Below, piece by piece: positions 3,718 through 27,657 of a stretch of DNA of 64,000 nucleotides. The translations under genes were made by a program, and so were the position numbers. Below the pieces are notes generated by a model, which was not told where the DNA came from, made no database searches, and saw only the letters and a program-made list of their open reading frames with translations. Source of the stretch: an uncultured Acidobacteriota bacterium (GTDB lineage: Bacteria; Acidobacteriota; Blastocatellia; RBC074); contig CAWCKY010000004.1 of the NCBI GenBank assembly GCA_963796275.1, positions 1,577,431 to 1,641,430 of the forward strand, in the 5' to 3' direction. The number at the start of each line of letters is the position of its first letter. The first letter of the stretch is position 1.

Positions 3718-5230
3718 CTCGACTTTAGATAAACGCGGCTGGGGCTTCCACCACAGCCGCGCCAGGGTTAGTTGTTATGCGTGACCATCAACAAACCAAC
3801 CCAAGAACATATTAATTCACTGACGGACTTTCGTCAGCAAGTTTACGCGCTCTTTGAAAATCAGCACGATGCGTTGTTTGAAATCATGGATGCAGTAATC
3901 CAGACACCGGCCGCGCGCTCCTATGCTGAACTCTCGCTAGCTCCTGCCTTCACCAGGAAGTGGCCTAGCCTTTATAGCGCACTCGCCGACGGGTCGATTG
4001 ATGTTAAAGAGCTGCGGGAGCTATGTCTGAAGCAAATGCCGCGGACGCAAGCGCGAATCCATTTCGCCATCGACGTGATGGCCGTTCGGCGAATGAATTC
4101 GCCAACCTTGAAGGATCGCGTCTTTTGCCACGGGGCGAAACGCGAGGTTTCAGGCACTGGTATCATTATCGGATTGCCGTACTCGATTCTCGCTTTCGTC
4201 AAGCAGCGCGGGGCGAGTTGGGCGCCCTCGCTTCATACGCAACGAGTCAAACCCAGTCAGAGCGCCGTGGATGTCGCAGTAAGGCAAGCCAGTTGGATCG
4301 CCGAGCAGCTGACGGCAGAGACGAGCCCCGAGATAGCTCTGGACGGCAGCTATGGCAATCTCAAATTCTTTCGTGGGATACGCGGCGTGAGAAGTTTTGC
4401 GACGGCCCGAATGCGAAATGATAGGGTGCTCTACCAAATCCCGCAGACACCCGCTGAAGGCGAACCGATGAAGCCTGGACGTCCACCCAAATATGGCCAG
4501 GAATTCCGCTTCGCTGACCCCCAGACTTGGCCGACACCGGATGAAGTCCTCGAGTTTGAAAACGCGCAATATGGGCGTGTCCGTCTGCAATTGTGGTCAA
4601 CCTTACGATTCCGGACGAAAAAGAATGAGATTGTTGATATCCCCGCCGTTGTCCGCTCGCAGATTCATTTGGAGAGGGACCAGCCGCCCGCACCGCATTG
4701 GTACGGAGTACATAATGGGACGACAGAAGAGACCACTCTGGGTCGCGTCTTTGAGTGCATCACGCATCGTTGGCCGATAGAGCCCGCCAACCGATTTCGC
4801 AAAGAAAGACTCTACGCCGAGCTGCCGAAAGTGCGACAAGCCGAGGCCAGCGATCTCTGGCTTCAGCTTCTACAAGTCATCGAGTGGCAACTTTACCTCT
4901 GGCATCCGGCGGCGAATGATGCTCATCTGCCGTGGCAAAAGCCTCTTGCTCTCGAGCAATTGACGCCCGGCAGAGTGATCCGCTCGCTGAGTGAGAATTT
5001 AAAACGAGTAGGCACGCCGGTTTCGGCTGTGCTACCACGAGGAAAATCTCCAGGCTGGCCTTCAGGCCGAGTCCGGACAGCGCCAACGACCTACCTTCTT
5101 GAGTCGATGAAGCGTAAAAAGGCGCTAGAAATGTCAAAGAACGAATGAAACAAATGAAATGTTGAACGAAAGTAGCTCTTTTCAACCTGATGGATAGTCA
5201 GGTTTTGGGAGAGCGTTATCTAAAGTCGAG
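3718..5230 (+). mobile_element. IS701-like insertion sequence
   Basis: Terminal inverted repeats CTCGACTTTAGATAA(A)CGC / GCGTTATCTAAAGTCGAG; 5-bp target duplication TATAA at 3713-3717 and 5231-5235. Confidence 0.9.
3772..5148 (+). CDS. DDE transposase, IS701-like
   Basis: 458 aa; FAID, LDGSYGN, RWPIEPANRFRKE and C-terminal PRGKSPGWP motifs. Confidence 0.9.
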   Translation: MLCVTINKPTQEHINSLTDFRQQVYALFENQHDALFEIMDAVIQTPAARSYAELSLAPAFTRKWPSLYSALADGSIDVKELRELCLKQMPRTQARIHFAIDVMAVRRMNSPTLKDRVFCHGAKREVSGTGIIIGLPYSILAFVKQRGASWAPSLHTQRVKPSQSAVDVAVRQASWIAEQLTAETSPEIALDGSYGNLKFFRGIRGVRSFATARMRNDRVLYQIPQTPAEGEPMKPGRPPKYGQEFRFADPQTWPTPDEVLEFENAQYGRVRLQLWSTLRFRTKKNEIVDIPAVVRSQIHLERDQPPAPHWYGVHNGTTEETTLGRVFECITHRWPIEPANRFRKERLYAELPKVRQAEASDLWLQLLQVIEWQLYLWHPAANDAHLPWQKPLALEQLTPGRVIRSLSENLKRVGTPVSAVLPRGKSPGWPSGRVRTAPTTYLLESMKRKKALEMSKNE

Positions 5231-7181: not shown

Positions 7182-7699
7182 ATTGGTCCTTGTTAAAGAG
7201 ACGAAGGGCTTGGAACCCTCATTAGATGTAAGCGGGCAAATGGCGAACTAACGAACGAGAGCGTCGCCGCTCACCGTCCCTGCGAGCCGCTTCTGTTTTT
7301 CGAGCGAATTGGGAATGCGGTGGTCTCGGACAGGCGTGTCATCGCGATCTGTCGAAACCGGGGGCCGAGGCGATCGAGCCAGCGCTGGACGCTGATGGAT
7401 GTGATCGGTAGATTGCGAACTGCGGCGTCGTCAACTCCCTTGACCCGGACATCCCACGAGGCAATGCGCGTCGTCGAGAGCGTCCTTTCGCGCTGTATCC
7501 GCCTAGCGACGAGCGCTGCCAGGTGAAAGCAGACCTTCTCGTTTGAATAATGATCTTGATCGAACGCAATCCAAATAGGTCTGCCGTGTGTGAGTTCGAT
7601 GATCGGGCTGTGATTGGCCGTTACGCATGGCGTCGCGACAATATACAACTCAGGATGGATGGCAGAGAGGACATCCGCTTTGAGCACTCCCTCGACGAT
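6984..7699. repeat. Copy 1 of a ~0.7-kb diverged direct repeat (VRR-NUC 5' part + primase 3' part)
   Basis: Aligns by eye with 63254-63955. Confidence 0.85.
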
Positions 7700-8434
7700 C
7701 ACAATCCGGGCATCACGCGGAACATCAGCAAGATGGAACTTGAAATGTAACGGGCTGCCCGAGCCGGACCCGTGCGGCAGATCGGAAGAGGAGAGCCAGA
7801 GGTATCGCAACCCTTTCTTCGAAGCGATCGGCAGTCGAATCTGGCAGGCTTGAATGCGCCCCGAGTCATCGCGCACAGGGATAAGCAGTCTCGGGAGCAG
7901 ATAATCTTTCGGCTTCCAGAGATGCACCCCCTGCCAGTCCTCCCAGAGCCCTGGAATGCCGCGCAGCGAACCAACGCCCGGAAACTGGTCATTTATCTCC
8001 TGCAGGAGCAGCCGCGAGATGCGGTCTCGCTCTCTCGAACCTCCGGCCAGCCCTCCGTAATTGCCGATATGACATTCGTTTAATCCGCGCGCAAGAAGCC
8101 CCGTCTCTCCGGCGATGAGCACGCCTGGATAGAGAGTGGCCGGGCTGAGTTCGATCAGTTTGCCGTAGATGAAGTCGCGAATTTCGATAGAAGCGATCGG
8201 CGACTGCGGAAGATCGGCGGCGAGGCGAACGCCAATTCCCTTCTCTTCATGCGAATCTTCGTGAATGAAGATCGCGCCGCCGTGGCTGTTGATCTTGCGC
8301 GCACCATCGCTTACGCGCATACACACGGAGAGAGTCTCGTCTCGGACAAACACGCACCAGTCCGGCTTTCCGCATATTCGGCAAGGCCTGCGCCGATTGA
8401 CGCGGCAGAAGACGTTTGAAGTCGATGTCGGCAT
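7271..8434 (-). CDS. Primase-like protein (Zn finger + TOPRIM/DUF3854-like)
   Basis: PCRICGKPDWC zinc finger, IVEGVLKAD, IAFDQD and KGVDDA TOPRIM motifs. Confidence 0.8.
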   Translation of the reverse strand: MPTSTSNVFCRVNRRRPCRICGKPDWCVFVRDETLSVCMRVSDGARKINSHGGAIFIHEDSHEEKGIGVRLAADLPQSPIASIEIRDFIYGKLIELSPATLYPGVLIAGETGLLARGLNECHIGNYGGLAGGSRERDRISRLLLQEINDQFPGVGSLRGIPGLWEDWQGVHLWKPKDYLLPRLLIPVRDDSGRIQACQIRLPIASKKGLRYLWLSSSDLPHGSGSGSPLHFKFHLADVPRDARIVIVEGVLKADVLSAIHPELYIVATPCVTANHSPIIELTHGRPIWIAFDQDHYSNEKVCFHLAALVARRIQRERTLSTTRIASWDVRVKGVDDAAVRNLPITSISVQRWLDRLGPRFRQIAMTRLSETTAFPIRSKNRSGSQGR

Positions 8435-9548: not shown

Positions 9549-10052
9549 GCTACCAGCGCGAGTGCTGGCTTGCGCTCACAATGCCGACCGCTATCTCTTT
9601 GTGATAAGAAGAAAGGCAATGGTATTTAAATGAAGCAATGCGCACCCTCCAGACCATCCTCAGAGTGCGAATGCGAAATGGATTTCAGTTTTGTCGTTTT
9701 CGGGTTGTCTGCGCCCGAAATCAGAGCAACAGAGGGATGAGCCGGAAAATGTCTGGGTGGTGACCGGAGGACCAAAAAGCCGGACTGAGTTTACGCCATC
9801 CAACTATTGGACATTGTACTAACTGCAAATTCGCCCATGGAACCATTCCTACCCTTGAAGGTATTCACGTTGGGTAATATTGACTTTCCGTGAAATTAAT
9901 TGATGAAAGACCGAATTCAGCCATATCACTATATATAGATGAATGATAAGGGACGTATATGTATATGTTGTATAAAAAGAAAAGTAGGTGAAGGGGCAGG
10001 TAGCTCGTTATACTGCCTGCTCACTCTCAGATTCCCAGGAGATTTTCTGGCA

Positions 10053-10598
10053 ATGGCAAAGACAGAAGAGTTAAGTGTGAAGGCGGATCGGAATTGGCTC
10101 CGGCTTCCTGTGGTCTCGTTGGGCGCTGAATATCTAGTGATGGGCTATCTCATGCGCCGCAACATCCTCACATACAAGGCCCCCCCGAACAACGAAGGCT
10201 ATGACTTGATCTGCATTCATCCCGATCCTAGAAGAGTTCCAAGGCAGGGAGAGCGTGCTCAGATCCGGGTTCAGGTTAAGAGCCGATACGCTACGGATTG
10301 CGACCGAGGCTTTCCTGTGAAAGATGTTTCATTCGAAGCATTCGACTTCCTTATTATAGCTTTTCTCAACATCGGAAAGTTCTACGGGCGGAATGATGGG
10401 ACTGATGGAGAGAGAGAGCCTGAGTTTTTCACGCTCCCAAATGAATTTATCAGAAAACATCACAATAAGAGTTCTTCATGGCAGAAGGTCCACCTTCGTC
10501 ACTTAGAAGAAGAGATACGCCCTTTCGCTGGAGAGGCGGGATTCGAACAGATTGCCAAGGCGCTTGGGATTCTTAAACCGACAAAACTTAGGCTCTAA
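10053..10598 (+). CDS. PD-(D/E)XK-family nuclease
   Basis: GAEYLV...NNEGYDLI...VQVKSR pattern. Confidence 0.7.
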   Translation: MAKTEELSVKADRNWLRLPVVSLGAEYLVMGYLMRRNILTYKAPPNNEGYDLICIHPDPRRVPRQGERAQIRVQVKSRYATDCDRGFPVKDVSFEAFDFLIIAFLNIGKFYGRNDGTDGEREPEFFTLPNEFIRKHHNKSSSWQKVHLRHLEEEIRPFAGEAGFEQIAKALGILKPTKLRL

Positions 10599-10639
10599 AG
10601 GTCACTCTGCTTGGGCAGCACCGGAACTTATCACTTATT

Positions 10640-10695
10640 CGTGAGCTTTCGCTGCGCTAGTACGACAATGGGGGCCAGCGCAGCGAATGCTCATG
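10640..10695. repeat. Palindromic repeat, copy 1
   Basis: CGTGAGCTTTCGCTGCGCT...ACAATGGG..CCAGCGCAGCGAATGCTCATG hairpin; related copy at 11572-11632. Confidence 0.7.
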
Positions 10696-10790
10696 GCGTT
10701 TTGGGAGGGCCAAAGCTGGTCGCAGCCAAAGCGGCGCGCTCTGTCCTTACTCTACCGGCTTGGAGAAAGCCACCTTTTTCGCGAAGTGAA

Positions 10791-11576
10791 ATGAGCAAAC
10801 AACACATTCTACCAAGAAAGAAATATGCGCTCTGGCTTGCGTACAATGGAATCTGCTACTACTGCAAAAAGTCGTTAGATTATGAAGATGTCTGGGTTGA
10901 TCACATTCTGCCAGAGCATTTATTGAACACTCCTGAAAGGCTGAAGCACCTACTGCAAGAGTATGAGTTAGATTCAGCCTTTGATGTTCAAGATTACGGC
11001 AATTGGATTCCGACGCACTGGCGCTGTAATCTTGAAAAAGGCGGCACAATTTTTGATAAGGGCGCAGCACGATACTACCTCAACATCGCCCGGGAAAAAG
11101 TCCCAGCTGCACAGGAACAAGAACGACGAGTTATTCGCAACCTTAAAAGAAGCAAGCTTCTTGGCAGTTTAGAAATCGCGATAAGCGAAGGGTTGTTATC
11201 TAAACAAGCTCTCGCCACTATTGTTATGCAAGCGCCGACGCCAAAAGCGGGAATAGAGCCTACGATTATTACGTTTGGACTGAACTATTATGATTTGTTG
11301 GAAAGCGAGTTGCGCCCTGGCTGGCTGGACGGCTATGATCAATCAGATTATCTTTTTGTGTGCGATTTGCTTGAAAAGGATTTGGTCAAACAATTGAAAT
11401 CTTTGCTGACGTGCGAATTCTTCTACCCGGAAGCATCTGAACGAAATGTTGAAACGCTCTCAGTGAGATTAGCTTTTGTTCAGCTAGATAAAAAAGAGAT
11501 GCGCCGGTTCAAAAGTAATTGGTGGGAAATTCTGGAACTTGCAAGTCACTCGGACATTTACGGTGAATTTGCGTGA
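10791..11576 (+). CDS. HNH endonuclease with C-terminal domain of unknown function
   Basis: CYYC...VDHILP...NWIPTHWRCNLEKG. Confidence 0.8.
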   Translation: MSKQHILPRKKYALWLAYNGICYYCKKSLDYEDVWVDHILPEHLLNTPERLKHLLQEYELDSAFDVQDYGNWIPTHWRCNLEKGGTIFDKGAARYYLNIAREKVPAAQEQERRVIRNLKRSKLLGSLEIAISEGLLSKQALATIVMQAPTPKAGIEPTIITFGLNYYDLLESELRPGWLDGYDQSDYLFVCDLLEKDLVKQLKSLLTCEFFYPEASERNVETLSVRLAFVQLDKKEMRRFKSNWWEILELASHSDIYGEFA

Positions 11577-11905: not shown

Positions 11906-12673
11906 TCAGTTTGAACGCATATCTTTCAGCGTCAAAAGAACATCATCCAACCCATGATGAGCAGCCTCGATACGTTTTGATCGCAGAACGACAAGGTCAC
12001 CGTTCATCTCTGAAAGCTGGAATGGAAAAAAAGCTGGGGTGTTCAGCATCAGTCTCAACGCCGCTTTGCCCTCAGAAATGGCGTGCAAAGCCGCCTCGAA
12101 TAATAGTATCACCAGCTTTTGGTCAGTGATGATTATTGGCAGAGCTTTCTCATAACATCCTTTAAAATCTGAATCTTTCAGTACTCCCCACGCAACAAAG
12201 GAACGGACAACATAGCGCGCGTTTCTGGCAACTGTCTCGCGATCGCCGTACTGCTGTTTCAATCTATTGAATATTTGCGCCTGGGTAATTTGGTCTTGAA
12301 GGTTCAGTAATCGGCCTACCTGCCGGGCAACATTGAACCAAAATGGATAGGCAGCAGAGATGACAGCCCAATGCAGCGGTAACCACATCTCTGGTTGCAA
12401 CTGCCGCGCCATTGACAATGCGTCATCTCGAAACGCGATCAGGTCTTCATTCGGAGAAAACCATGAAGCGAGGATACTGATTGCCATTCCATATGTCTTA
12501 CTTCCACGTTCCCCAATTCCCCCGCTCTGCTTTTGTGTGGACAAGTATTCATCCAGGTTCTCTCGTATTTCCGTTTCAGACATGCCTGCTAATAGCATGT
12601 GAAGAACTCGATCCATCCATTCCTTCTGGATCGTTTGCTTGATTCCTAATTTTTCATGCCGTTTGTCAATCAC
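11906..12673 (-). CDS. brxA: BREX-3 BrxA-like protein
   Basis: Last gene of the BREX operon, overlapping the pglZ stop; LHWAVISAAYPFW and YGDRETVAR..RSFVAWGVL. Confidence 0.7.
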   Translation of the reverse strand: MIDKRHEKLGIKQTIQKEWMDRVLHMLLAGMSETEIRENLDEYLSTQKQSGGIGERGSKTYGMAISILASWFSPNEDLIAFRDDALSMARQLQPEMWLPLHWAVISAAYPFWFNVARQVGRLLNLQDQITQAQIFNRLKQQYGDRETVARNARYVVRSFVAWGVLKDSDFKGCYEKALPIIITDQKLVILLFEAALHAISEGKAALRLMLNTPAFFPFQLSEMNGDLVVLRSKRIEAAHHGLDDVLLTLKDMRSN

Positions 12674-14665
12674 CGCGCTCTCCTCTCAAACTTTACCAAG
12701 GGCACGATGACCTCTTCAATGGCAATGCCTCCGTGTCCGACAAGTGTTTCGTTAGGGTTCATAAATGCATTATTGCCACCGGCAAGAAGCGGGAAATAAT
12801 CCGATGGCAGCCCGACTGGTTGCCACTCAATAGCAAAAGTAAATTTTCCAGCAACCAACGCCCTGAGTTCAGGAGTCGGGTAGACCCGGACTCGTTCTCC
12901 ACGAGTCTCGGCAATGACGCCTTCATAGGGACGCCCCTTGCCACGGCATTCGATATTGCCATGATCGGATGTCAACCAAACTTGAAACCCGGAATCAAGC
13001 AAATAGCCAATAAGCGACGCCAGAAAGCCTCCCTTGCACCACTGTTTTATCTGGTTATGCATCCCGGCTGCACCAAGCTGCAGTGCCATGCATGATTTTG
13101 TCGACCGTGTCAACAACCACCCCGACCGCCCTGGTCCTTCCCGGATGCAGAGTGGAATCCAAAATATTAGCAACGTCGCCATCGCCCAGCCCTCGCTGGT
13201 AAGCGATATCCAAACGCGACAATCCAACTCCTTCCCAGAACTGCTTCCAAAGATTGCCCTCGTTATTGGTCGTATTGATCGACGAAGGAAAGTAGATCGG
13301 AGCCTTTCCAGAAAAAATCGCTTGTCTGGAGACAGAGGTCAGCGTCGGAATCCAGGCGAAGGTCGCAGACTCACGCAATATAAAACTCTGATCCTGCTCC
13401 TGAAGAACCTGACGAATGGTGACCCACTGATCTAAGGCAAGTCCGTCGACGACAATTAACGCGATTCGGCAGTCTTTGGCCTCCTCCATCTCCCGAGCCA
13501 ACCGCCGAGGGACATGGTGCAGCATAGCTGAATTGGCCGGCGGCAAATTAATCAGACTGGCGTAGTGTGACTTAAGCCAATTGGCAAAGGTCACGTTTAC
13601 ATTTATGCCGGTTTGAAGAAAACGGGCCTTGACTTCCGCTTCAGAGCCGCAGTAAATCAAGGTTGCCAATTCAGCCCATTTCAATGCGAATGCGGTCCAA
13701 TCCGAATACCTGCTATCTACCGATGGCAAACCACTCTCTATGAGTTCTAACAGACGAGAGATCCGTACCCCTTCATCTTCTCTTTCAGTTCCGATTATGC
13801 CGCACCGAATCCAAGACTCTGTATCGATCGAGATATCCTGTCTCTTAACGGGTGTGAGTCTTCCCTCAACGAACAGGTTGTCGATATAAACCAGAATATC
13901 CTGATGATCAAATGGCAAAACTGCAGGTCCTGGATACCTGAGAATAACCTCAAAGGAATTTTCACTAATCTGATTGTCGGCATCGAGTCTGTCAAGGAAA
14001 ACGGGCCAGCGCTCCTGTAAGAAAGAAAAGAATGCTTCCCCATCGACCACAATTTCATCCAAAGGCCAATCTTCGAACCCGCCATTCACCTTGAGCGACT
14101 GCACGAGCCGATTAGCCAGAACTTTAGGAATATCAATCTTTTTGTAGTGCAGACGAAGCAATGTCCGAAGCAGATCCACTTCTGTCGTGATCAACTCAGC
14201 CGCAACGCCAAAAACGTGGCGAAGAATGAAATCCCTGGTCGCGTTGTCGCCCATCCGATCGGGCACTGTCTTCTTCTGGGCATCGAACAGCACGTCCAGA
14301 AGACCGCGGTCAAGCTTCTCAATGACTGAATAACTCAGATTTGGGAAAAGCCTTCCAAGGTCAAAGGCTAGTCGTCTACCGGCCTGGAGCAAATCATATG
14401 GAAGCGCTTCGAACGCCGAATCTTGTAAGCGTAGAATGACTACCAGATCGGTAACCCCACCCCGATCCCAGATCGAACGATATTTCGATTCATAAGCGTA
14501 TCGAAACTCAACTGGATCACTGAACTCAATCAGTTCAAAGCCACGCGCCCTCAGTTCGAAGGAAAGTTTCTCTTCGGTCAAAAGGCAATCCGGATCAGCG
14601 ACTAGCGTAAGTTTGCTGACATTAGGAATGAATTCGTTCAAGATAGCGTCTCGCCAACTATTCAT
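12670..14665 (-). CDS. pglZ: BREX-3 PglZ alkaline-phosphatase-fold protein (one frameshift near 13080)
   Basis: IVVDGLALDQW, PTLTSVSRQAIF, LTSDHGN and HGGIAIEEVIVP. Confidence 0.92.
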
Positions 14666-17579
14666 TGAGCGCCTCCTTTAACGATGCGCATCAACAGCAG
14701 TGGCCGAATCTCCGGAACAATCTGCCTTGCAGATTCCAACTCTTTGCGCCATTCAGACTCCTCAGCATCACATCGCACCAGCCGATGCTGGCGCACCTCG
14801 GGCAACCCAACACGATCAATGGCCTTTCGCCGTGAGCTAAAGGCGGTCGTTCCGCGATCTTCTTCCCGAACAATAGAAGCCATGTGCTCCTGCTGCAAAG
14901 TATCAAATTGCTCCCGTCCTACCTGTTCCGCTGCACACATAAGCCGGTCAGAGGCGGCCAGTGATTCATCGTGCCCCATGGCATCCAGCACCTTCGGTTC
15001 CACTGTCTGCAGGGCATCCCAGATATGACGGGCAGTTGGTAGAAATACCTTGCCTTCTTCGCTCAAGAACATACTTAAGTAGCGCCTTCGAACTATAGGT
15101 ATCTGAATCAGGTGGTTCTGCCTGTGCCTGCCAGCTTGTAAGCGGATTTCAAAAAGTCCCCAGTAACCTGACAAACTCAAGGGCACCCCACTCAGGGACA
15201 CACAGGGCAACGGCTGCCCAGCGGTGACTTGCGGCAGGTTGAGCGCCAATCCACGAACCTGGTTGTACTCCAGATTCAGCAAGGTGGCATCCGAAAGCCG
15301 GTCCGCCTCACGGGAACTAAACACGCACTTACGATACACTTGTCCATCCGGCCAAGTAAGCTCCCACCACGAGCGCTTTCGTGTCGCCTTACCTCCATGA
15401 GAGTTCAAATAGCCAACTGTCATCCGCTCCACCCAATGTGGCAAAGGATGGAAACGCAAGCGTTCGGCTACCTGCGCATCAGGCTCATCAGAAATACCAT
15501 AGATGGAGGATGAATCCCGTATTTCGCGGATATCTTCTCGAAAACGGGTCGCCGTCTGCTCCACCGATGATTCAATGCCATCCGGATTCAGTAAGGCTGA
15601 AGTGAAGACTTCCTCGAACAATTCGCCAGCTTGTGCCGAATCGAGCACATCGCCGGTCTTATCGATTCCAAACTCCTCGAAGATTACCGAGAGCTTTTTC
15701 TCCAGAACCTCCCGAACGCGGAATTCGACCGTGTTCTCAAAAACAAAATTGATGGCTTGCACCGTCTTTGACTGGCCGATACGATCCACGCGTCCAATCC
15801 GCTGTTCCAGCCGCATTGGGTTCCACGGGATATCGTAGTTGACGATAATGTGACAGAATTCCAGATTCAATCCTTCCCCACCGGCATCCGTAGAGACCAG
15901 GACACGAGCGTGCTCACGAAAAGCTTCCTGCGCGCGCTTGCGCTCGTCCATATCCATGGAACCGTTGAGCGTCACCACCGAAATACCTCTGGCCTCCAGA
16001 AATTCCCTTAACATCTCCTGGGTCGGTATGAACTCGGTGAAAATAAGCACCTTCAGATATTAGATCGTTCTGGTCAATTTGGAGCCGGTAAATCCATTCG
16101 ATCAGCGCCTCTGACTTGGCATCGGGGCCAGCCTGTTCGCATCTTCTGGCCAAATCCAGCAGGGCGTCCACCTGACCGCCTTCCCTTTTCAGAGTCGATA
16201 CAGGGAACCTCAAAAACTCATCGAGAAGTTCTTGGCCATCAAGGTCGTACATCTCGTCATACCCGTCGACAACACTAGCGCCATTTTGAAGCTCTTCAAG
16301 ATGTAGACTAGCCTGCTGCCTGCTATCAATTAGTGCCTCAAGCCGGTGTTCTAGCGTGGTGCGGATCGCCCGGGTGCTGGAAATCACCAACCGCTGCATC
16401 AGAATCATCAGAAACCCTATGTGAAGTTTCTTCTCTCGTATGGCTTGGTTATATCCATCACGCACATAATCGGTCACGGCATCATAAAGAAGTTGCTGGA
16501 GATGGTGTCGCGCTTCCCACGACACTCCCACCATCTGTGTGCGTCTGGGTTTGAATAGCGGCTTACCATCGGCATCTATGGCTTTCCGCTTTTCAGTGCG
16601 TATCACATAGGGGGCTACACGATCGCGAGAGACGCTATCTAAGTCTGGAAAGGCGTCGTTATCCAGCAGGTTCATCAGACGATAAAAGGCATCGGTTTTG
16701 CCTTGATGTGGAGTGGCCGAGAGTAAAAGCACATATGGAGCAGCGTCTGCAAGTCCCCGACCCAGCTTGTAGCGTGCTACCTGATCAGTGCTACCGCCCA
16801 GGCGATGAGCCTCATCCACTATTACCAGTATCCCAGCCCGCCGTCACCAGATCCTCAAAACGACTGCGGTTGTATTCCGTCACTCGTTGTAATGTCCAGC
16901 CACGCCGCTTGTCCAAGGGCTTTACAGAGTCCAGAGAAACTTCCACTTGATCAAACATCGCCCAAGGATTGTTCCGCAAGCGTGGAGCCTGGAGAGAGGG
17001 GGACATCATGTCGTCCCCGATTCTCACTTCATACTTTACATTCGAAATACGCTGCAGTGTGTTGATATCATCACCCAGAATAAGCTGGAACCGTTCGTTG
17101 AAATGATTCAGCATCTCCGCTACCCATTGCGCAACCACCAGCGTTCGACGCGACAGGCCGCGCAGTTTAAGTTCGCGCATGATAAGCCCAGCTTCAATGG
17201 TCTTGCCTAAACCGACTTCATCAGCCAGCAGGTAACGTACGCGGTCGCCGGAGATGGCTTTAGACAAGGCGTGGATTTGGTGTGGCAGTGGAATGACTTT
17301 CGACTCCATAGGAGCCAGAAGCAGGGGGCCTTCAGAAGCGCTGGCACCACCCTCAAGAACCTCGGCGACTTTTGATGCCGCAGCGACATAGCCAATCCGA
17401 TTGGCTTCAATATCTGGCTGAAGATCAGCGCTCAGCGGCCGAAGCGCAGAGCTAGGAATCCGGACTACAGCATCCTGATTCGGCAACCAAACACGGCAAA
17501 CCGTCTGCCCCCACAAGATATGCTCTTCGATGACTTTACAGGCGCAGTTGTGGATCACGCTATATTGCCATTGATTCAT
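14662..17579 (-). CDS. brxHII: BREX-3 SNF2-like helicase (three frames)
   Basis: LLADEVGLGKTIEAG, DEAH, LSATPHQG, TDAGGEGLNL and WNPMRLEQRIGRVDRIGQ. Confidence 0.9.
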
Positions 17580-17587
17580 CGCTCTGG

Positions 17588-18640
17588 TTATTTCGGTATG
17601 GAAAAGTCATTGTGATAAACAACTGAAGCCAGCTCTATCGTCCCGTCGGCGCATTCCCAGTAATGAAGATGGAATTCTCGGTCGATATCTCGGCGCTGAG
17701 CTTTATCATTCCCACGCATTCTTTGAGGGTCATTGCCTCCTGGGCCTGTTCTGAGCGCATGTACTGCGGCTAGATTCTGGTTTTTTATTGTTTCTACAAT
17801 TGATCGTAATATCCTTGGCGGTAAAGAATCTCCTTGATTAGTACAACAGTTCTGACAAGCCTTAAGGAAGTTTTGGCCGATAGTTGGCACTGAGGCGTTC
17901 TCCCAATCAGGGGCTTCACCTTGCGCAATACTATTCTTATATAAGGCGATCCTGATTGAAAGTTCTATTCCAAGATTGTCAGATGCACCAGTCAGAATAA
18001 CAGGCTCGTCAAGACATTCGATTAATCCTCTGAAGTCGTCACAGGCCAGAACGTCTCCCTCAAAAAATTCTGGAGGGGAGGGCAGTGTAGGAATGTCATC
18101 TCTTTCGTGTTCAAAAACATGAATCTGCGCTCGCACCCTTACCACCTGTTTTGGTGTTTGCCGGAGAATAAGTGAGTGGCCTCCGAGCGGTTGCCAACAA
18201 TGTTTCCGCAGGATTGCAATTGGAGTGACACAGCGGGCCAAATCCGATTGCAATCCTTTATATGTCGTCAACCTAATAATGTCCGGATCAGTTTCAAGTG
18301 GATCTGCCAACACATCTCTCACACGATAATAAGTTTCGAAGGAAGGGGTGATAGTCAGTAGCCGATCTGCAATTTTGGCGACCGTGTTTACGTCGTATTC
18401 TACGATCCCATGCGCATTAAATAACGCTCTAAGATGGTCACGTAGCGGATATAATCCATCTGCAAAAAGTGACTCAGATGCTCTTTCGCTCATATAAATC
18501 GCCACCCAAGGCTCGTCCAGAAGCTTGCTCCAATCTAGAAGTATATCGACGTACTTATACGCGTTCTCGGTAGAGCATGCTCCCTCGGGCACAGCTAGCA
18601 CTGCGGCATCAATTGTTACACTTGGCCTACTTTGTGTCAT
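17588..18640 (-). CDS. Uncharacterised protein with putative C-terminal RelE-like RNase domain
   Basis: Likely start MTQSRP at 18640 overlaps the ATPase stop; C-terminus RRDIDREFHLHYWE..IELASVVYHNDF. Confidence 0.6.
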   Translation of the reverse strand: MTQSRPSVTIDAAVLAVPEGACSTENAYKYVDILLDWSKLLDEPWVAIYMSERASESLFADGLYPLRDHLRALFNAHGIVEYDVNTVAKIADRLLTITPSFETYYRVRDVLADPLETDPDIIRLTTYKGLQSDLARCVTPIAILRKHCWQPLGGHSLILRQTPKQVVRVRAQIHVFEHERDDIPTLPSPPEFFEGDVLACDDFRGLIECLDEPVILTGASDNLGIELSIRIALYKNSIAQGEAPDWENASVPTIGQNFLKACQNCCTNQGDSLPPRILRSIVETIKNQNLAAVHALRTGPGGNDPQRMRGNDKAQRRDIDREFHLHYWECADGTIELASVVYHNDFSIPK

Positions 18641-20549
18641 CTTTCCTCCTGCGGGCAATACGTTTATTGGCTGCGGCACGTAGAATCTCCTCTGCCTGCT
18701 GCTGGGATTGATCAAAAAATCCCTCAGGCCACTGAGGGACAGCGCCGTACTCATTGATAATCACCTCACAGAAAGAAGAACTTAGAGCGGGTTTCTCTAC
18801 AAAGTAAATCTTTGTATAACTGTTAAGTTCGTCTCCTGGTATAGCAGCGGCAATTCTGAAGCGTAGGCGGTCAATAAAATATTCGCTGTGAGTTTCGACA
18901 ATGCATTGCTTATTACACAACGCCATCGACAAGAAAAAGTCTCCCAATAGAGTTTGGACTTTAGGGTGAAGATGTAATTCCGGCTGCTCGAAAACTAAAG
19001 TCGAGTCTTGGTCGGCCAAGAGACACATTACAAGGATTGGAAGAACCTGACTGACGCCGACACCAACGTGAGTAAGATCATATGTGCTTTCTGAATTCGC
19101 CAAACCAACTTTCAGTTCATGTCCCAACTTACCTTGATCCCGACTCTTTACAAAACTGGCTACTCCAAGGTATTGAAGCCAATCTATAACGGCGGATTCT
19201 AAAGTACGCGTTATAGTCTTCCGGTCGATAGTTGCCGATTTGAAATGGGATGATGGGATGTAATTGATTTTTTTATTCTTGTGAAGCTCTAGTATAGAAG
19301 CGGTATGCTCGCCACGTAGTCCGACATCAAAAGGATCTACTGCGGGTGCAAGCGGATATAGTGGCTTGGGGGCATCCCTCAATGGGCCAAGATATTTCAG
19401 GGATGACGAAAAAAAGTCATCCAAATATCTTGAAGCTTCCATTATTTGTCTGGGGGGCAAGGCCTGGATAATTGCATGGTTATCAGACTGTTGAGATGAC
19501 TTTTTTAGTGCTTCTAGAATCCGATCAAACAAATTATCCGATTCACGCAGTACTTGCTGAACCTTAATTCTAGTGCCGGGAGCCAGCGATCTTAATCGCT
19601 CATTCCAAAACCGTAACGATATTGTCTCGTTATCAGCAATAAGGGAAGATTCCTGTTGATACCTTATATTGAAGACTTCGTCGAAATCTATGGTGTCGCA
19701 AAGAATGTCACGTAAAACAGCAATTACCTCTTTAGTGAGAATAATACCTCGGTTCATACTCCTTCTAAGGCCTACTGTTCGGCGCCTGTCATCTTGTAAC
19801 GCCAGAGTTATTGAATTAGCTTCTTCTTGGACGGTATCAAGGCTATAAATTACTCTATCTGGCAGGAAATGCCTCAGTATGCATCCCATTGCCTTTGCGG
19901 AACGAAAATCCTCCCTTACTTCACTCATGGAATGATCATCAAGATCAACATCATATGCTAGACTTGCGCGAAGTTGGTCGTCGAATTCATCCATGGCGTT
20001 CATGCCGTCAATTTGCGATATCGCCTTACTTGAATGTCGTATAGATATCTCTGCTTTTAGGTCGACATTATCCTCATCTCTCGATATGCACAATAACCGG
20101 CTCGCGAAGAGCCTAGGCTGTATCTGGAACAGCTCTCTTTGTGAACTCGATGGGTCAGCATCAAAAGAAATTTCGCAGGAAACCTCACGGAGTTGAGTAT
20201 ACCTTGACCCATAATAGACCGTTCCTCTCGTATATACAGCGGATGATGCTATAGTCGGAATATCTGTATTTGGCAATGGGTTGCAAGTGCATTTGACTAC
20301 AATTTGATCTGACTCACTACCATTTGACTTTAGATCATCAAATTGCCCAAGACTTGTAAGTGCTCCATTCAAAACAACGGAGCGAGAGCTGACTTTGTGA
20401 GATAGCGTTTGGGCTACGAGCAGAATTGATTGGATTAATGTGCTCTTCCCACTGCTATTCGCACCGGCGAATATGGTTAATGGTCCAAGAGACAATTCAG
20501 TTTCTTCACGAATTGACTTAAAATTGAACACTTCCCATTTGGTGATCAT
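18627..20549 (-). CDS. ABC-type (AAA_15/AAA_21) ATPase with DUF3696 C-terminus
   Basis: NFKSI, GANSSGKS, VGVGVSQVLP, FEQPELHLHP, IVETHS and WPEGFFDQ. Confidence 0.88.
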   Translation of the reverse strand: MITKWEVFNFKSIREETELSLGPLTIFAGANSSGKSTLIQSILLVAQTLSHKVSSRSVVLNGALTSLGQFDDLKSNGSESDQIVVKCTCNPLPNTDIPTIASSAVYTRGTVYYGSRYTQLREVSCEISFDADPSSSQRELFQIQPRLFASRLLCISRDEDNVDLKAEISIRHSSKAISQIDGMNAMDEFDDQLRASLAYDVDLDDHSMSEVREDFRSAKAMGCILRHFLPDRVIYSLDTVQEEANSITLALQDDRRRTVGLRRSMNRGIILTKEVIAVLRDILCDTIDFDEVFNIRYQQESSLIADNETISLRFWNERLRSLAPGTRIKVQQVLRESDNLFDRILEALKKSSQQSDNHAIIQALPPRQIMEASRYLDDFFSSSLKYLGPLRDAPKPLYPLAPAVDPFDVGLRGEHTASILELHKNKKINYIPSSHFKSATIDRKTITRTLESAVIDWLQYLGVASFVKSRDQGKLGHELKVGLANSESTYDLTHVGVGVSQVLPILVMCLLADQDSTLVFEQPELHLHPKVQTLLGDFFLSMALCNKQCIVETHSEYFIDRLRFRIAAAIPGDELNSYTKIYFVEKPALSSSFCEVIINEYGAVPQWPEGFFDQSQQQAEEILRAAANKRIARRRKDDTK

Positions 20550-20552
20550 GTG

Positions 20553-23392
20553 CTACTCATCTCCCATTCTTGTCATCGCTAGGTTATACCACATAAGCAG
20601 CTTTGGATTTCTTCGAGCACGTTGTTGGGAATCTTATCAGCTATACCAACGATGGTAGCGTAGTCGCGCTCTTGCCAAGCTTTCTTGAAGCCGGCGCGGA
20701 CGGCTTCAAGGCGAAAGACTTTGAGCTTCTTCTTCGCTTGTCTATACTCCTCGAATTCTCTGAGCAGGGCTTTTTCGCGTAGTTTTTCTAGATCGCCTGC
20801 CTTGTTAGGTATCTGGAACGTACCATCTGTCACGGGCTTTTGCGATCAATGCCGAATTATCTTTCGGCAGGTTACGCATTTCCTTCCAGTTGGTAGATAG
20901 GTAGGAGTGAATCTGTTCCGGCACCGGGCCTTTACCGTCATATCGCAGAAAGTTTTGATCCAACAATTCAGATAGCTCTATGGCTCTCTCATTTTTTTGC
21001 CAGCCCCCCTGTGTTTCACGCATGAATTGTGGCTGAAGATCCTGAAATGTCTGTGGTTTTCTAATCACCTGTTGTTTTACCCACTGAATGGCGGACATTT
21101 CATCAGAAACGAAGAGGTCGAGTTGGAGCAGTTCCCTCGACGTCATCCGCTTACGCTCGTACTCAGCGACCTGATCTGTCAGGAAGTACATGCCATCGCG
21201 CTCGGGAAACCGCTGGGCCAGTCCTTGGTAAAAGTCGCCTGCAGAGAGGGGTACGCTGACTTCGCGCTGTACGTGAAAGGCGACCATGCGGTCGAACAAG
21301 AGTATCTGTTGCCTCTCCGCAATAATTTGCCCAAGCCCATCTTTGATAATGAAAACGGGAAGTTGCCGAAGGTGGGTTCGAATGAAATCCCAGACACCCT
21401 CTTCTGTTCCAGCGTGAAGTTGGAATCGCTTTTCGAGCCCGCCGTTAGGTTTGTAAGCGGAGATGACAAGGTCCTTATCGACTGCCTTGGCGTGCAACTG
21501 CTTCTTGGTCTTCATTCCTTTATCGAGAACGCTGACATCAGCGATGATGAATCCTGCGCGTCCCAACGCCTCCTGTATCGCGGTCCATACGGCGTTCTTG
21601 GAATTGTGAAACTCTATCGTGGCCCACCGGCCTGGCTTTAGGATGCGATAGACCTGTTTCAGGCAATCTGTCATCATCTTCGTATAAATGAACAAGTCTT
21701 TCCGTTGCTTTCCGCTTACCACGGTATCCTGACCTGAGTTTGTGAATACGTGGAGCCACGCCTCCCACAAAAAATTTAACTCGGCGTAGGGTAAGTTGTC
21801 GCCGAAGGGCGAGATCGTATGAACACATAATCAATGGAGTTATCCGGGATCAGTACAGAGGCGAGAGACTGGGTGGTTATGGCTACTGAGGAGCAACATT
21901 TTGGAAGAGCGTTGCCAAATCTCTTGATCTTTCCGGTTAAGACATACGTCGGGCTTGGTTCGCTAACTGTTGAGCCGATGTAGAGTGTGCCACTCAAGGC
22001 GCGGTTAACCTGGGAATAGGCGTTCTTCAGGAATCTATTACGACGGGTAAAGCTCACGACAACACTCTGCAACGTGAACCGCCAGAGCCGCTTCATTTCC
22101 TCTCTAGGCAGGTCATCAATCATTTGCCACAATAAAGAGAACGCGGCAAGTTGGCGCGAGAGGTGAAAATCGTGAGCGCGGCTGATCCCCTCGTGGTATC
22201 CTCTATAAAGATCTCCCCATTCTTCTCCCTCTGACACAAACATCATCAATTCTGTCGGAAACTCGATGGAGTCAAACAGTCGCTCGACTTTCTCAAGGCA
22301 GGCTAGATCGTCACGATCGGGTTTCTTGCTTTTCTTCAACCCTCGATGTCGGTATCGAATCTCCACTGGACGCAAGACTTGACGCGACCGAGTAGCCTTT
22401 ACCGCCTTGTCGTAATAAGTAGTTGTAAGTCTGACAAGATCACGCTTAGACACCTCTGCAGTACAATGAGGACAGGCTAGCTGATCGGCTAACGATCCCG
22501 ATTCTTCATCATAGGCCAAGTCCCAGAACTCCAGTTCACCGGCGCAATGGGGGCAGGAAAAGATATCTGACCAGATGGTGAAGTCAATCGGGCAAGTCTC
22601 CCCTGTCTTGGGATCTCGCGTCTCATACATCCACCAGTATTCTCGGTTGAATTTGTCCAGAAGGTTTTGCGCAAGTTGCGCGAACTCCTTCGAATCATTC
22701 GTTAAGTTATAACCCGCTGCTATCAATGTTGCAGCGGACGAGAGGTCGTTCAGAATGGAAATTCGCTCTCCCAATTTAGAGAACCTTTGCTTATGTTCAT
22801 CCAGAATGCTTCCATCTGCAGTTAGCGTATAACTAAGGGATGCAATTGTGTTTCGGTCCCCGCACATTTGCGCGGCCACGCCAGTCATCCCAGTTCCACA
22901 GAAGCCATCAAATATTATGTCACCCGGCTCGGTGTAATGAAGAATGTACCGCATGATAGCTTTATGCGGCACCTTAGTATGATAGGAATGCGCATTGTAG
23001 ATTGGGTCGTTCTTGCCCTCGCTCACATCAGCGGCAAACGGCTCTCGGTGATATTGGTGGTCTTCAGGCTTTTCCGGCTTTTGGGCTTCCCATTCAGCAA
23101 TGAAATCTGCAATCCAAGGATTCGGGCAGGCGGTGTAATACGGAGGATCGCTCAGATTCAGAATCTCTTCGCCGTTACCGATGGGAAATCCGTCGATGTT
23201 GCGGAATTCCGGATCTTTCAGCTTTTCCCGCAGTTTCTCGGTGAAGTACTTGCGTCGCTCCTCATCGTTGACAAAGGTCATGCCGAGGCAAGTTACAGCC
23301 TCGGACTGCCTCCACGCCTTTCCAGAGATCGTATCAAACAAGCTATTGTTACTCATATCCAAATTCTGGATTACATTTTGTCTCTCAGACAT
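20553..23392 (-). CDS. pglX: BREX-3 DNA methyltransferase PglXI (several frameshifts)
   Basis: HSYHTKVPHKAI, FDGFCGTGMTG, two CPHC motifs, garbled DPPF motif near 21810, C-terminal FRLEAVRAGFKKAW. Confidence 0.9.
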
Positions 23393-23394
23393 TC

Positions 23395-27123
<3,729 letters not shown>

Positions 27124-27127
<4 letters not shown>

Positions 27128-27657
27128 CGTGTCTGCTCCAGAGCCACTTCAGTTCCTGTTTTCGCGCCAACGTCTCCGGCCAGAGCTTCCGGAACGACTA
27201 TCAGAAAATCCTGTATCGGATATCGCTTATATTCAGGGTGGTCCGGCGTTGCATAGACCATATGTTCACGATCCACGGAGCCACTCCAGGATACAACTAC
27301 CGTTTTGTTTCGTGAGACTCCTTGTAAGAGCCTCAGCGGATCCTGCTTGAGCGAGGCATCGAACAGTACCTCAATGTTGTCGAGCAGGATCAGCTCGGCC
27401 GGGTCTGCATTCATGATTTCCAATAAGAGGTGGGGCAACTGCAGCGCCCGCTGGCGTTCGGTAAGTTCAAGCATATGCCTAGACAGTTCAAGGTTGACAT
27501 TGAAAACAGGGGCTCCCGTTCGCGCGTGAAGATATTGGAGTGCAGCGGTCTTTCCCGCACCCGCCGGGGCCACAAGTATGACGAGACGGTTGTAAAGTCC
27601 CGCTGCCTGGCCGATCTTAAGTATGATCCTGTCAGTAAGTGAATCAGGCATTTTCAT
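27124..27657 (-). CDS. brxF: BREX-3 P-loop protein BrxF
   Basis: [27 protein letters not shown] and YATPDHPEY; overlaps the brxC start. Confidence 0.9.

Follow-up and report, generated by a model that had tools for sequence, protein, structure and literature searches.

A two-gene module of an NsnB-type ATPase and a putative effector is embedded in a lineage of type 3 BREX operons

Effectors that are gated by an ATPase and embedded in a larger defence operon as a back-up form a published class, and the idea behind them is published too. The closest described relative of the element considered here is Menshen, which consists of NsnA (DUF262 with ParBDB), NsnB (an ATP-binding cassette, or ABC, ATPase with DUF3696) and NsnC (an inactive PIN domain with a polymorphic C-terminal effector) (PMC12065111). 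Our subject is a pair of genes in a 64,000-nucleotide stretch of DNA, hereafter the window, from an uncultured Acidobacteriota bacterium (assembly GCA_963796275.1, contig CAWCKY010000004.1). The first gene encodes an ABC ATPase of the NsnB kind and the second a 350-residue protein, which we call the partner. Both lie within a type 3 bacteriophage exclusion (BREX-3) operon.

Three publications, each cited here from part of its text, set the background. In the Menshen survey, NsnC has an N-terminal adaptor domain and a C-terminal effector domain. Nine of 15 NsnC effector families have the BECR fold, and YoeB is cited among the related BECR families with validated RNase activity. In the published models, NsnB tetramers clamp NsnC via their DUF3696 tails, and a non-canonical Walker B motif is reported for NsnB. 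About 28% of Menshen operons reportedly have links to BREX, restriction-modification (R-M) systems or methylase genes. The survey was built on DUF262 homologues, and thus pairs lacking NsnA were outside its scope (PMC12065111). A second study introduced 'guilt by embedding' and derived 145 candidates from embedding in BREX, DISARM and R-M systems. It describes HEC-03, an ABC ATPase with a PIN protein in which defence needs both genes, and discusses guarding of the PrrC and PARIS type (bioRxiv 10.1101/2024.01.29.577857). The third study treats BREX type 3 as a system of six core genes, present in 919 taxa and with BrxHII in 77%. Here, OLD-ABC ATPases with TOPRIM, HNH, restriction endonuclease or PIN nucleases inside BREX loci are read as a back-up layer, and non-TOPRIM OLD-ABC pairs inside BREX are counted in 594 taxa. 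PARIS-like modules inside BREX loci are read as a countermeasure to anti-restriction proteins. RelE or BECR partners are not mentioned in the part of the paper cited here (PMC12839542).

The initial annotation of the window had placed a two-gene module, an ATPase and an unknown protein, between pglXI and brxHII. Direct reading and family scans confirm this arrangement. The operon occupies positions 11906-27657 of the minus strand in the order brxF, brxC, pglXI, ATPase, partner, brxHII, pglZ and brxA. All six canonical BREX-3 genes are present in the canonical order; five were recognised by PADLOC and brxA by its similarity to related loci. The last pglXI frame ends with TAG at 20555-20553 and, 3 bases on, the ATPase begins with ATG at 20549. 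The ATPase stop (TAG, 18629-18627) and the partner ATG at 18640 overlap by 14 nt, and AGGAGG precedes the partner ATG. The two genes are translationally coupled. Only 8 bases separate the partner stop (TAA, 17590-17588) from the brxHII ATG at 17579. The three spacings annotated earlier (3 nt, 14-nt overlap and 8 nt) are all exact. A longer partner open reading frame (ORF) of 388 aa starts at 18754. We prefer the 350-aa start because most of 120 listed homologues measure 346-352 aa (range 327-363).

We consider the pair to be an autonomous ATPase-gated toxin module of the Menshen, HEC-03 or PARIS kind, which lacks the NsnA (DUF262) sensor, has long been resident in one BREX-3 lineage and is exchangeable at its slot. 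The probability that we attach to this reading is about 0.58. Four elements of it are proposals by analogy with the NsnB-NsnC, Septu and PARIS models: binding between the two proteins, an RNase activity, the trigger and abortive infection as the result.

The first gene encodes an OLD/NsnB-type ABC ATPase of the DUF3696/NsnB branch. Pfam matches are AAA_15 (2.6e-25), AAA_21 (5.8e-19) and DUF3696 (1.7e-09). The top PADLOC model is NsnB (4.9e-73), in line with the initial annotation, which had linked DUF3696 ATPases to Menshen; the match is in two stretches, the larger covering residues 282-624. Further PADLOC matches are to HEC-03B (9.5e-49) and PDC-M55A (8.8e-41), both over the C-terminal half, and to AriA (5.6e-29, only residues 444-559). 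The nearest solved chain in the PDB is the OLD-family nuclease 6p74 (1.9e-09). No variation was seen across 33 homologues in the Walker A motif, the Walker B/D-loop stretch or the H-loop, so that both motifs and nearest structure are those of an OLD-family ABC ATPase. The Walker B acidic pair is non-canonical. No TOPRIM domain fused to the ATPase was found in the Pfam scan; classical OLD and GajA proteins have one, and NsnB and AriA do not. Between the two NsnB-matched stretches are ~220 residues with no family match, in a part of the protein that holds variable inserts in ATPases of this kind. Residues 306-636 also match a phage protein family of unknown function, phrog_21420 (3.2e-106). Separately, the ATPase homologue in a metagenome-assembled genome of Hoeflea (L026:8062-9984) has one internal stop, which may be a real defect or a sequencing error.

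The likeness to Menshen extends beyond the best defence model. In both cases an ABC ATPase with a DUF3696 tail has an effector gene directly downstream, and NsnB and the window ATPase depart alike from the canonical Walker B and signature motifs. The partner joins a long N-terminal region to a short C-terminal domain of possible BECR/YoeB type, and its position and size match what is expected of NsnC. Unlike Menshen, the locus has no NsnA. The initial annotation had noted the absence of a DUF262 gene, and this holds: the operon has no room for one, with just 3 nt between the pglXI stop and the ATPase start, and a search of the entire genome, which is 94.7% complete, found no DUF262 (PF03235) match at E<=0.001. 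The ~220 extra residues of the window ATPase are a further difference. One comparison weighs against our reading: alignment of the partner with eight NsnC sequences using hhalign gave P=0.043 over 37 columns, which we do not count as significant, and PADLOC found no NsnC match.

Other described systems resemble the pair in part. HEC-03 and the PDC-M candidates are also two-gene ABC-ATPase-effector modules within methylation-based defence operons. Conversely, HEC-03 is embedded in Hma and the window pair in BREX-3, the partner has no PADLOC match, and no Pfam PIN match was found in the partner or in 85 relatives. PARIS (AriA-AriB) shares an OLD-type ABC ATPase that gates a separate toxin, in line with the partial AriA match. 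Unlike AriB, the partner has no TOPRIM/DUF4435 match in Pfam or PADLOC, and the window ATPase belongs to the DUF3696/NsnB branch. PrrC in EcoprrI is an ABC-type ATPase-gated RNase nested in an R-M operon and silenced by that operon. However, PrrC is a single fused polypeptide and an anticodon nuclease, whereas the window has two genes and the pair is also found without BREX.

The partner has no match in Pfam, PADLOC (none even at E<=10), NCBIfam or PHROGs. Hence, current defence-system finders would miss it; the PADLOC check proposed with the initial annotation recovered the ATPase, with NsnB as best model, and left the partner without any model. We found 668 homologues in a 90%-clustered collection. 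At 50% clustering there were 642 representatives, 124 of them below 1e-30. An alignment of 85 homologues, with identities as low as 24%, places most of the conservation in the last 60 residues. Here R316 and W328 are invariant, and conservation of 90% or more is seen at H294, R297, R309, H326, Y327, E336 and H343. Hardly any polar residue is conserved in the first 250 positions, where only P18, L58, P65, E102 and P119 reach 90%. A very divergent PIN-like fold may lie within residues 1-252. Pfam searches with the 85 relatives (E<=1) returned 28 families with one member each, and RelE, ParE, YoeB and PIN were not among them. Short stand-alone relatives of residues 250-350 gave 34 matches, all of them fragments of the same family without a Pfam domain. 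Searches of 72,556 plasmid and 50,697 phage records found no match to the partner.

To survey the neighbourhoods of the pair, as the initial annotation had recommended, we used partner-derived patterns to find 41 loci in species-representative genomes and mapped the window proteins onto them. The loci fall in at least 10 phyla, including Pseudomonadota, Verrucomicrobiota, Myxococcota, Bacillota, Rhodothermota, Latescibacterota, Thermodesulfobacteriota, Actinomycetota and Chloroflexota. In every one of the 40 loci with enough sequence to tell, the ATPase is directly upstream of the partner; the remaining locus (L033) begins within the partner gene. BREX-3 genes adjoin the pair in 34 of the 41 loci, a fraction that is not unbiased, since the loci were picked by partner patterns. 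Among these 34, the window order is found on both sides in 25, five are one-sided (short contigs), one is degraded, and three, from Chloroflexota (L036, L037 and L039), have the order brxC-pair-pglX. Thus, unlike canonical BREX-3, which has no additional genes between pglXI and brxHII, an eight-gene form occurs in at least 25 loci. In seven of the 25 loci with both flanks, brxHII is lost or a remnant and the pair is retained. In the degraded locus (L019) we found an IS66 transposase and then a PLD-helicase-DUF3427 protein (L019:11315-17501).

The other seven loci have no BREX gene in the available flank. Four (L030, L031, L032 and L042) are on short or cut contigs, and three (L027, L038 and L040) have 8-10 kb on both sides. 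The L027 pair adjoins a divergently oriented GmrSD type IV restriction gene (L027:6257-7939). In L038, a second AAA_15 ATPase and a PIN-domain protein follow directly downstream (L038:11340-13192). Two neighbouring ORFs were scanned in L040, and their only matches are to non-defence families (HlyD and DNA alkylation repair). The initial annotation had proposed a guard that would be triggered when BREX is inhibited. Because the pair also occurs without BREX, it does not depend on BREX for being kept. The pair is not a local insertion but a conserved part of a BREX-3 lineage that has been widely transferred.

Sequence composition and selection were compared across loci. The pair is more AT-rich than its neighbours, as first annotated, with a GC content of 0.42-0.47 over 17600-20600 and 0.50-0.53 in the flanks. 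In 11 of 14 loci the GC content of the pair is 3.5-10 points below that of brxC. Hence, AT-richness is a property of the cassette and not a sign of recent insertion here. Both genes of the pair are under purifying selection. For 105 pairs of 15 loci, the median raw ratio of non-synonymous to synonymous differences (pN/pS) was 0.29 for the ATPase, 0.24 for the partner and 0.28 for BrxC, with pN at 0.21-0.23 and synonymous sites near saturation (median pS ~0.8).

These distributions bear on an alternative in which the pair is a working arm of the BREX-3 lineage. BrxC, PglXI, PglZ and BrxHII would then be the DNA sensor that replaces NsnA and would signal to the ATPase, and the partner would be the executing nuclease. 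We regard this as unlikely, and it is the alternative that survives best. The identity matrices of the pair correlate with those of BrxC and PglZ at rho 0.95-0.97, compared with 0.98 between BrxC and PglZ themselves (the pairs compared are not independent). Such strict co-divergence suits an integral role as well as it suits a passenger, and to that extent counts against our reading. The same is true of the identical slot in the 25 both-flank loci, the linkage to BREX-3 that survives rearrangement in the three Chloroflexota loci, the persistence of the pair where brxHII is lost or a remnant, the translational packing with the neighbouring genes, and the lack of an NsnA-like sensor gene. Conversely, the pair is found in loci without BREX in the available flanks, three of which have long flanks on both sides, and type 3 is treated as a six-gene system in the text cited above (PMC12839542).

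A further point against a working arm is that BREX-3 loci exist in which the slot is empty or otherwise filled. A sample of 401 genomes from the same phylum contained seven others with full PglXI, and none of these seven BREX-3 loci carried the pair. In two, pglXI leads directly to brxHII, in two it leads to pglZ, and in three other, unrelated modules stand directly after pglXI. The first of the three (L090:4333-8011, genome G167) encodes an AAA ATPase of 361 aa and an S8 subtilase peptidase of 868 aa, a pair that we take to be IetAS-like. The second (L091:3-2822, G381) encodes a 940-aa PHP and ABC ATPase protein, and the third (L089:2-1351, G143) an AAA_15 ATPase at a contig end. The slot after pglXI acts as a hotspot for embedded defence genes.

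Exchange at this slot is also suggested by a PglX tree. This was a quick maximum-likelihood tree of the middle region with 39 rows, 30 labelled 'pair' and nine 'no pair', the latter including two outgroup methyltransferases. Pair-less loci are nested among pair-bearing ones, and the 'pair' label needs six changes. Branches with at least 95% support in the Shimodaira-Hasegawa-like approximate likelihood ratio test force at least two changes, and 18 of 500 shuffles were equally low. Among the L002-L035 loci, with BrxC identities of 71-87%, the N-terminal part of PglXI (window 21776-23392) reaches only 37-50% identity, and 42-50% where the BrxC identity is 86%. Such a pattern is consistent with exchange of the methyltransferase target-recognition region inside a single cassette lineage. 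Because PglX recombines, the tree may overstate gains and losses, and its support for exchange of an autonomous module is reduced accordingly.

A more specific proposal is that the BREX-3 core replaces NsnA as the sensor and gates the NsnB-like ATPase directly, which would give BREX-3 a built-in RNase-based abortive arm. We think this doubtful, and somewhat more so than a working arm in general. If true, it would connect a BREX system with a specific effector that carries out its action, and would explain both the co-divergence of the pair with BrxC and PglZ and its persistence where brxHII has been lost.

The nature of the effector depends on the partner's C-terminal region, for which the initial annotation proposed a RelE-like fold. 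We built a YoeB alignment of 86 columns from 13 sequences taken from genomes. Using hhalign, partner residues 253-343 matched YoeB collinearly over 78-80 of the 86 columns with P 0.007-0.015. The score was reached by four of 300 column shuffles, and the reversed alignment gave P 0.33. Partner residues R316/R317, H324/H326, Y327 and H343 align with the W-S-R-R, H-R-L-V-Y and terminal Y-H stretches of YoeB. In a search of 849 ORFs with a hidden Markov model of the tail, seven of the 13 YoeB ORFs were in the top 15, with E-values of 0.7-7; these ORFs are kin and do not count independently. In the ESM Atlas, a stored homologue compared as a whole protein gave, as a lead, a 289-aa 'YoeB family' cluster at 0.92, and all named neighbours of the tail were RelE/ParE or YoeB clusters. 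A 285-aa open frame ending in YoeB (L047) was considered as a bridge between the families and rejected, since it proved to be a normal antitoxin-toxin pair from a genome rich in GC.

Several observations count against this assignment, and hence against a toxin of this class. The hhalign probability for YoeB is only 3-5%, and the ESM Atlas score of the tail, 0.77, is under the lead threshold. Across the wider family, conservation is lacking at the partner residue opposite the YoeB glutamate. None of the 85 members of the partner family matches the RelE, ParE or YoeB models of Pfam (E<=1). The Pfam YoeB model misses the partner gene in its own genome at E<=10, where it has one unrelated match, and the partner profile finds no PDB chain at E<=10. 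Comparison with a 28-sequence ParE alignment gave P=0.24 in hhalign, with 62 of 200 shuffles equal; the same procedure connects YoeB to ParE at 5e-06. The similarity to YoeB, marginal as it is, spans the whole domain. Unlike YoeB and RelE toxins, the domain of the partner is fused behind a 250-residue region, has no YefM-like antitoxin and shows no similarity to ParE. Of the original proposal, then, a marginal YoeB match stands, and ParE, Pfam YoeB and the PDB are silent. A RelE/YoeB-class fold for the partner tail is plausible but not established, and we lean slightly towards it.

The same statistics leave some room for a partner that is not a nuclease. It could act as an adaptor, bind DNA or have a regulatory role, and its likeness to YoeB would be a product of chance. 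The marginal YoeB score, the negative ParE, Pfam and PDB searches and the lack of a conserved acidic residue opposite the YoeB glutamate all fit this possibility. However, conservation in the protein is highest in the tail, which holds both invariant residues together with conserved His and Arg residues typical of metal-independent RNases. The YoeB alignment is collinear across nearly the whole domain, every named Atlas neighbour of the tail is RelE/ParE or YoeB, and partners of NsnB-type ATPases are effectors in the part of the Menshen survey cited here (PMC12065111). We therefore judge a non-nuclease partner improbable. Least likely is that the pair keeps the BREX island stable as an addiction module of the toxin-antitoxin type, with an ATPase that merely neutralises the toxin and senses no phage: an AAA_21 match (described in Pfam as 'putative AbiEii toxin, Type IV TA system'), the resemblance of the tail to a type II toxin and the horizontal spread of the cassette over at least 10 phyla are in its favour, but a 640-aa ABC ATPase with fully conserved catalytic motifs exceeds the needs of an antitoxin, the plasmid records, where addiction modules are common, contain no match, and the characterised relatives cited in the available parts of PMC12065111 and bioRxiv 10.1101/2024.01.29.577857 are all phage-defence systems.

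For an autonomous ATPase-gated toxin module, the following mechanism can be envisaged. The ABC ATPase would oligomerise and keep the 350-aa effector inactive by means of its DUF3696 tail. A phage cue, which may be a BREX-attacking protein or a signal sent by BREX, would shift the nucleotide state of the ATPase. The effector would then be released or activated, and its C-terminal domain, most likely an RNase of the YoeB/RelE class, would halt translation and abort the infection.

The features of the operon are listed in Table 1. The BrxC of the window shares 86% identity with its counterparts in L002 and other loci. With the intact L002 proteins as reference, pglXI has three frame changes, brxHII two and pglZ one; the three brxHII pieces cover consecutive stretches of the PADLOC profile PDLC02500. 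The assembly (9.46 Mb in seven contigs) shows the same behaviour outside the window. There (contig C6:1266086-1274588), matches to rpoC fall into eight pieces and those to rpoB into 10, and internal TGA, TAA and TAG stops occur. Because rpoB and rpoC are also broken, the breaks in pglXI, brxHII and pglZ are most likely assembly indels. A decayed BREX system around a preserved pair was considered and rejected, as the two polymerase genes are equally fragmented and the frameshifts are best read as assembly errors. Both genes of the pair are intact, and the initial annotation was right to call them unbroken. However, in an assembly this rich in indels their intactness is biologically uninformative, and any apparent pseudogene in the window needs a check at the level of reads. 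Five soil-metagenome runs contain at most 0.08 of the sampled words of the region, and their reads cannot settle the frame breaks.

Table 1. Genes and protein segments of the BREX-3 operon, in window positions
Feature	Position	Strand	Details
brxF	27124..27657	-	177 aa, intact; PADLOC BrxF 5.1e-67
brxC	23525..27127	-	1200 aa, intact; PADLOC BrxC E=0, 2039 bits
pglXI methyltransferase	20553..23392	-	Four frame segments (21776-23392, 20805-21830, 20579-20845, 20553-20633); PADLOC PglXI 9.7e-171, 3.3e-160
OLD/NsnB-type ABC ATPase with DUF3696 tail	18627..20549	-	640 aa, intact; Pfam and PADLOC
Walker A of the ATPase, residues 29-37, GANSSGKST	20439..20465	-	G29 and N31-S36 invariant in 33 homologues
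Walker B / D-loop stretch of the ATPase, residues 517-529, ..LVFEQPELHLHP	18963..19001	-	E521-P529 invariant in 33 homologues
DUF3696 C-terminal helix region of the ATPase, residues 578-621	18687..18818	-	Pfam PF12476 1.7e-09
Partner protein	17588..18640	-	350 aa, intact; no family in four libraries
Partner N-terminal region, residues 1-252	17885..18640	-	Few conserved polar residues
Partner C-terminal region, residues 253-350	17591..17884	-	Candidate YoeB/RelE-like (BECR) RNase domain
brxHII helicase	14662..17579	-	Three frame segments (16812-17579, 15914-16819, 14662-16050); PADLOC PDLC02500 2.8e-102, 1.2e-127, 7.1e-206
pglZ	12670..14665	-	Two frame segments (13055-14665, 12670-13227); PADLOC PglZ 7.7e-246; Pfam PglZ in both pieces
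brxA	11906..12673	-	255 aa; 47-66% identity to the gene after pglZ in related loci; no Pfam match

Other features of the window and of related loci were recorded. Beyond brxA, the window encodes a DDE_5 transposase (3772-5148, plus strand), a weak DUF3854-like ORF (7271-8434, minus strand) and two family-less ORFs of 219 and 321 aa (9939-11576, plus strand) that converge on brxA. Together these suggest that the BREX cassette is in a mobile or island context. Two of the Chloroflexota loci, L037 and L039, each have two tandem pglX copies, and in both brxC and the ATPase are matched in several pieces. Stretches without a match to any window protein, which may be further inserts, measure ~1.1 kb between brxHII and pglZ in one locus (L021:13935-15086) and ~1.5 kb inside the N-terminal region of pglX in another (L011:4762-6269).

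The initial annotation, whose interpretation is supported in part, had called the module undescribed. This is too strong for the module class, which is published, and it may hold for more specific elements: in the parts of the literature cited here, the partner family, an NsnB-effector pair lacking NsnA and the eight-gene BREX-3 lineage were not found named. Supplementary Data S4 of PMC12839542 or the PDC tables of bioRxiv 10.1101/2024.01.29.577857 may list the pair, for instance as OLD-ABC plus PIN. With the concept already known, the gain is incremental. Even so, the way in which BREX blocks phage is not yet clear, and no BREX type has been studied less than type 3. The eight-gene form, the six-gene forms, the stand-alone pairs and the other modules in the same slot make up a natural experiment across phyla. 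Several cultured strains have intact copies, among them Thiobacillus denitrificans DSM 12475, Aerolutibacter ruishenii, Sphingobium lactosutens and Bradyrhizobium vignae. These variants allow a test of whether embedded ATPase-toxin modules communicate with the host system or ride along.

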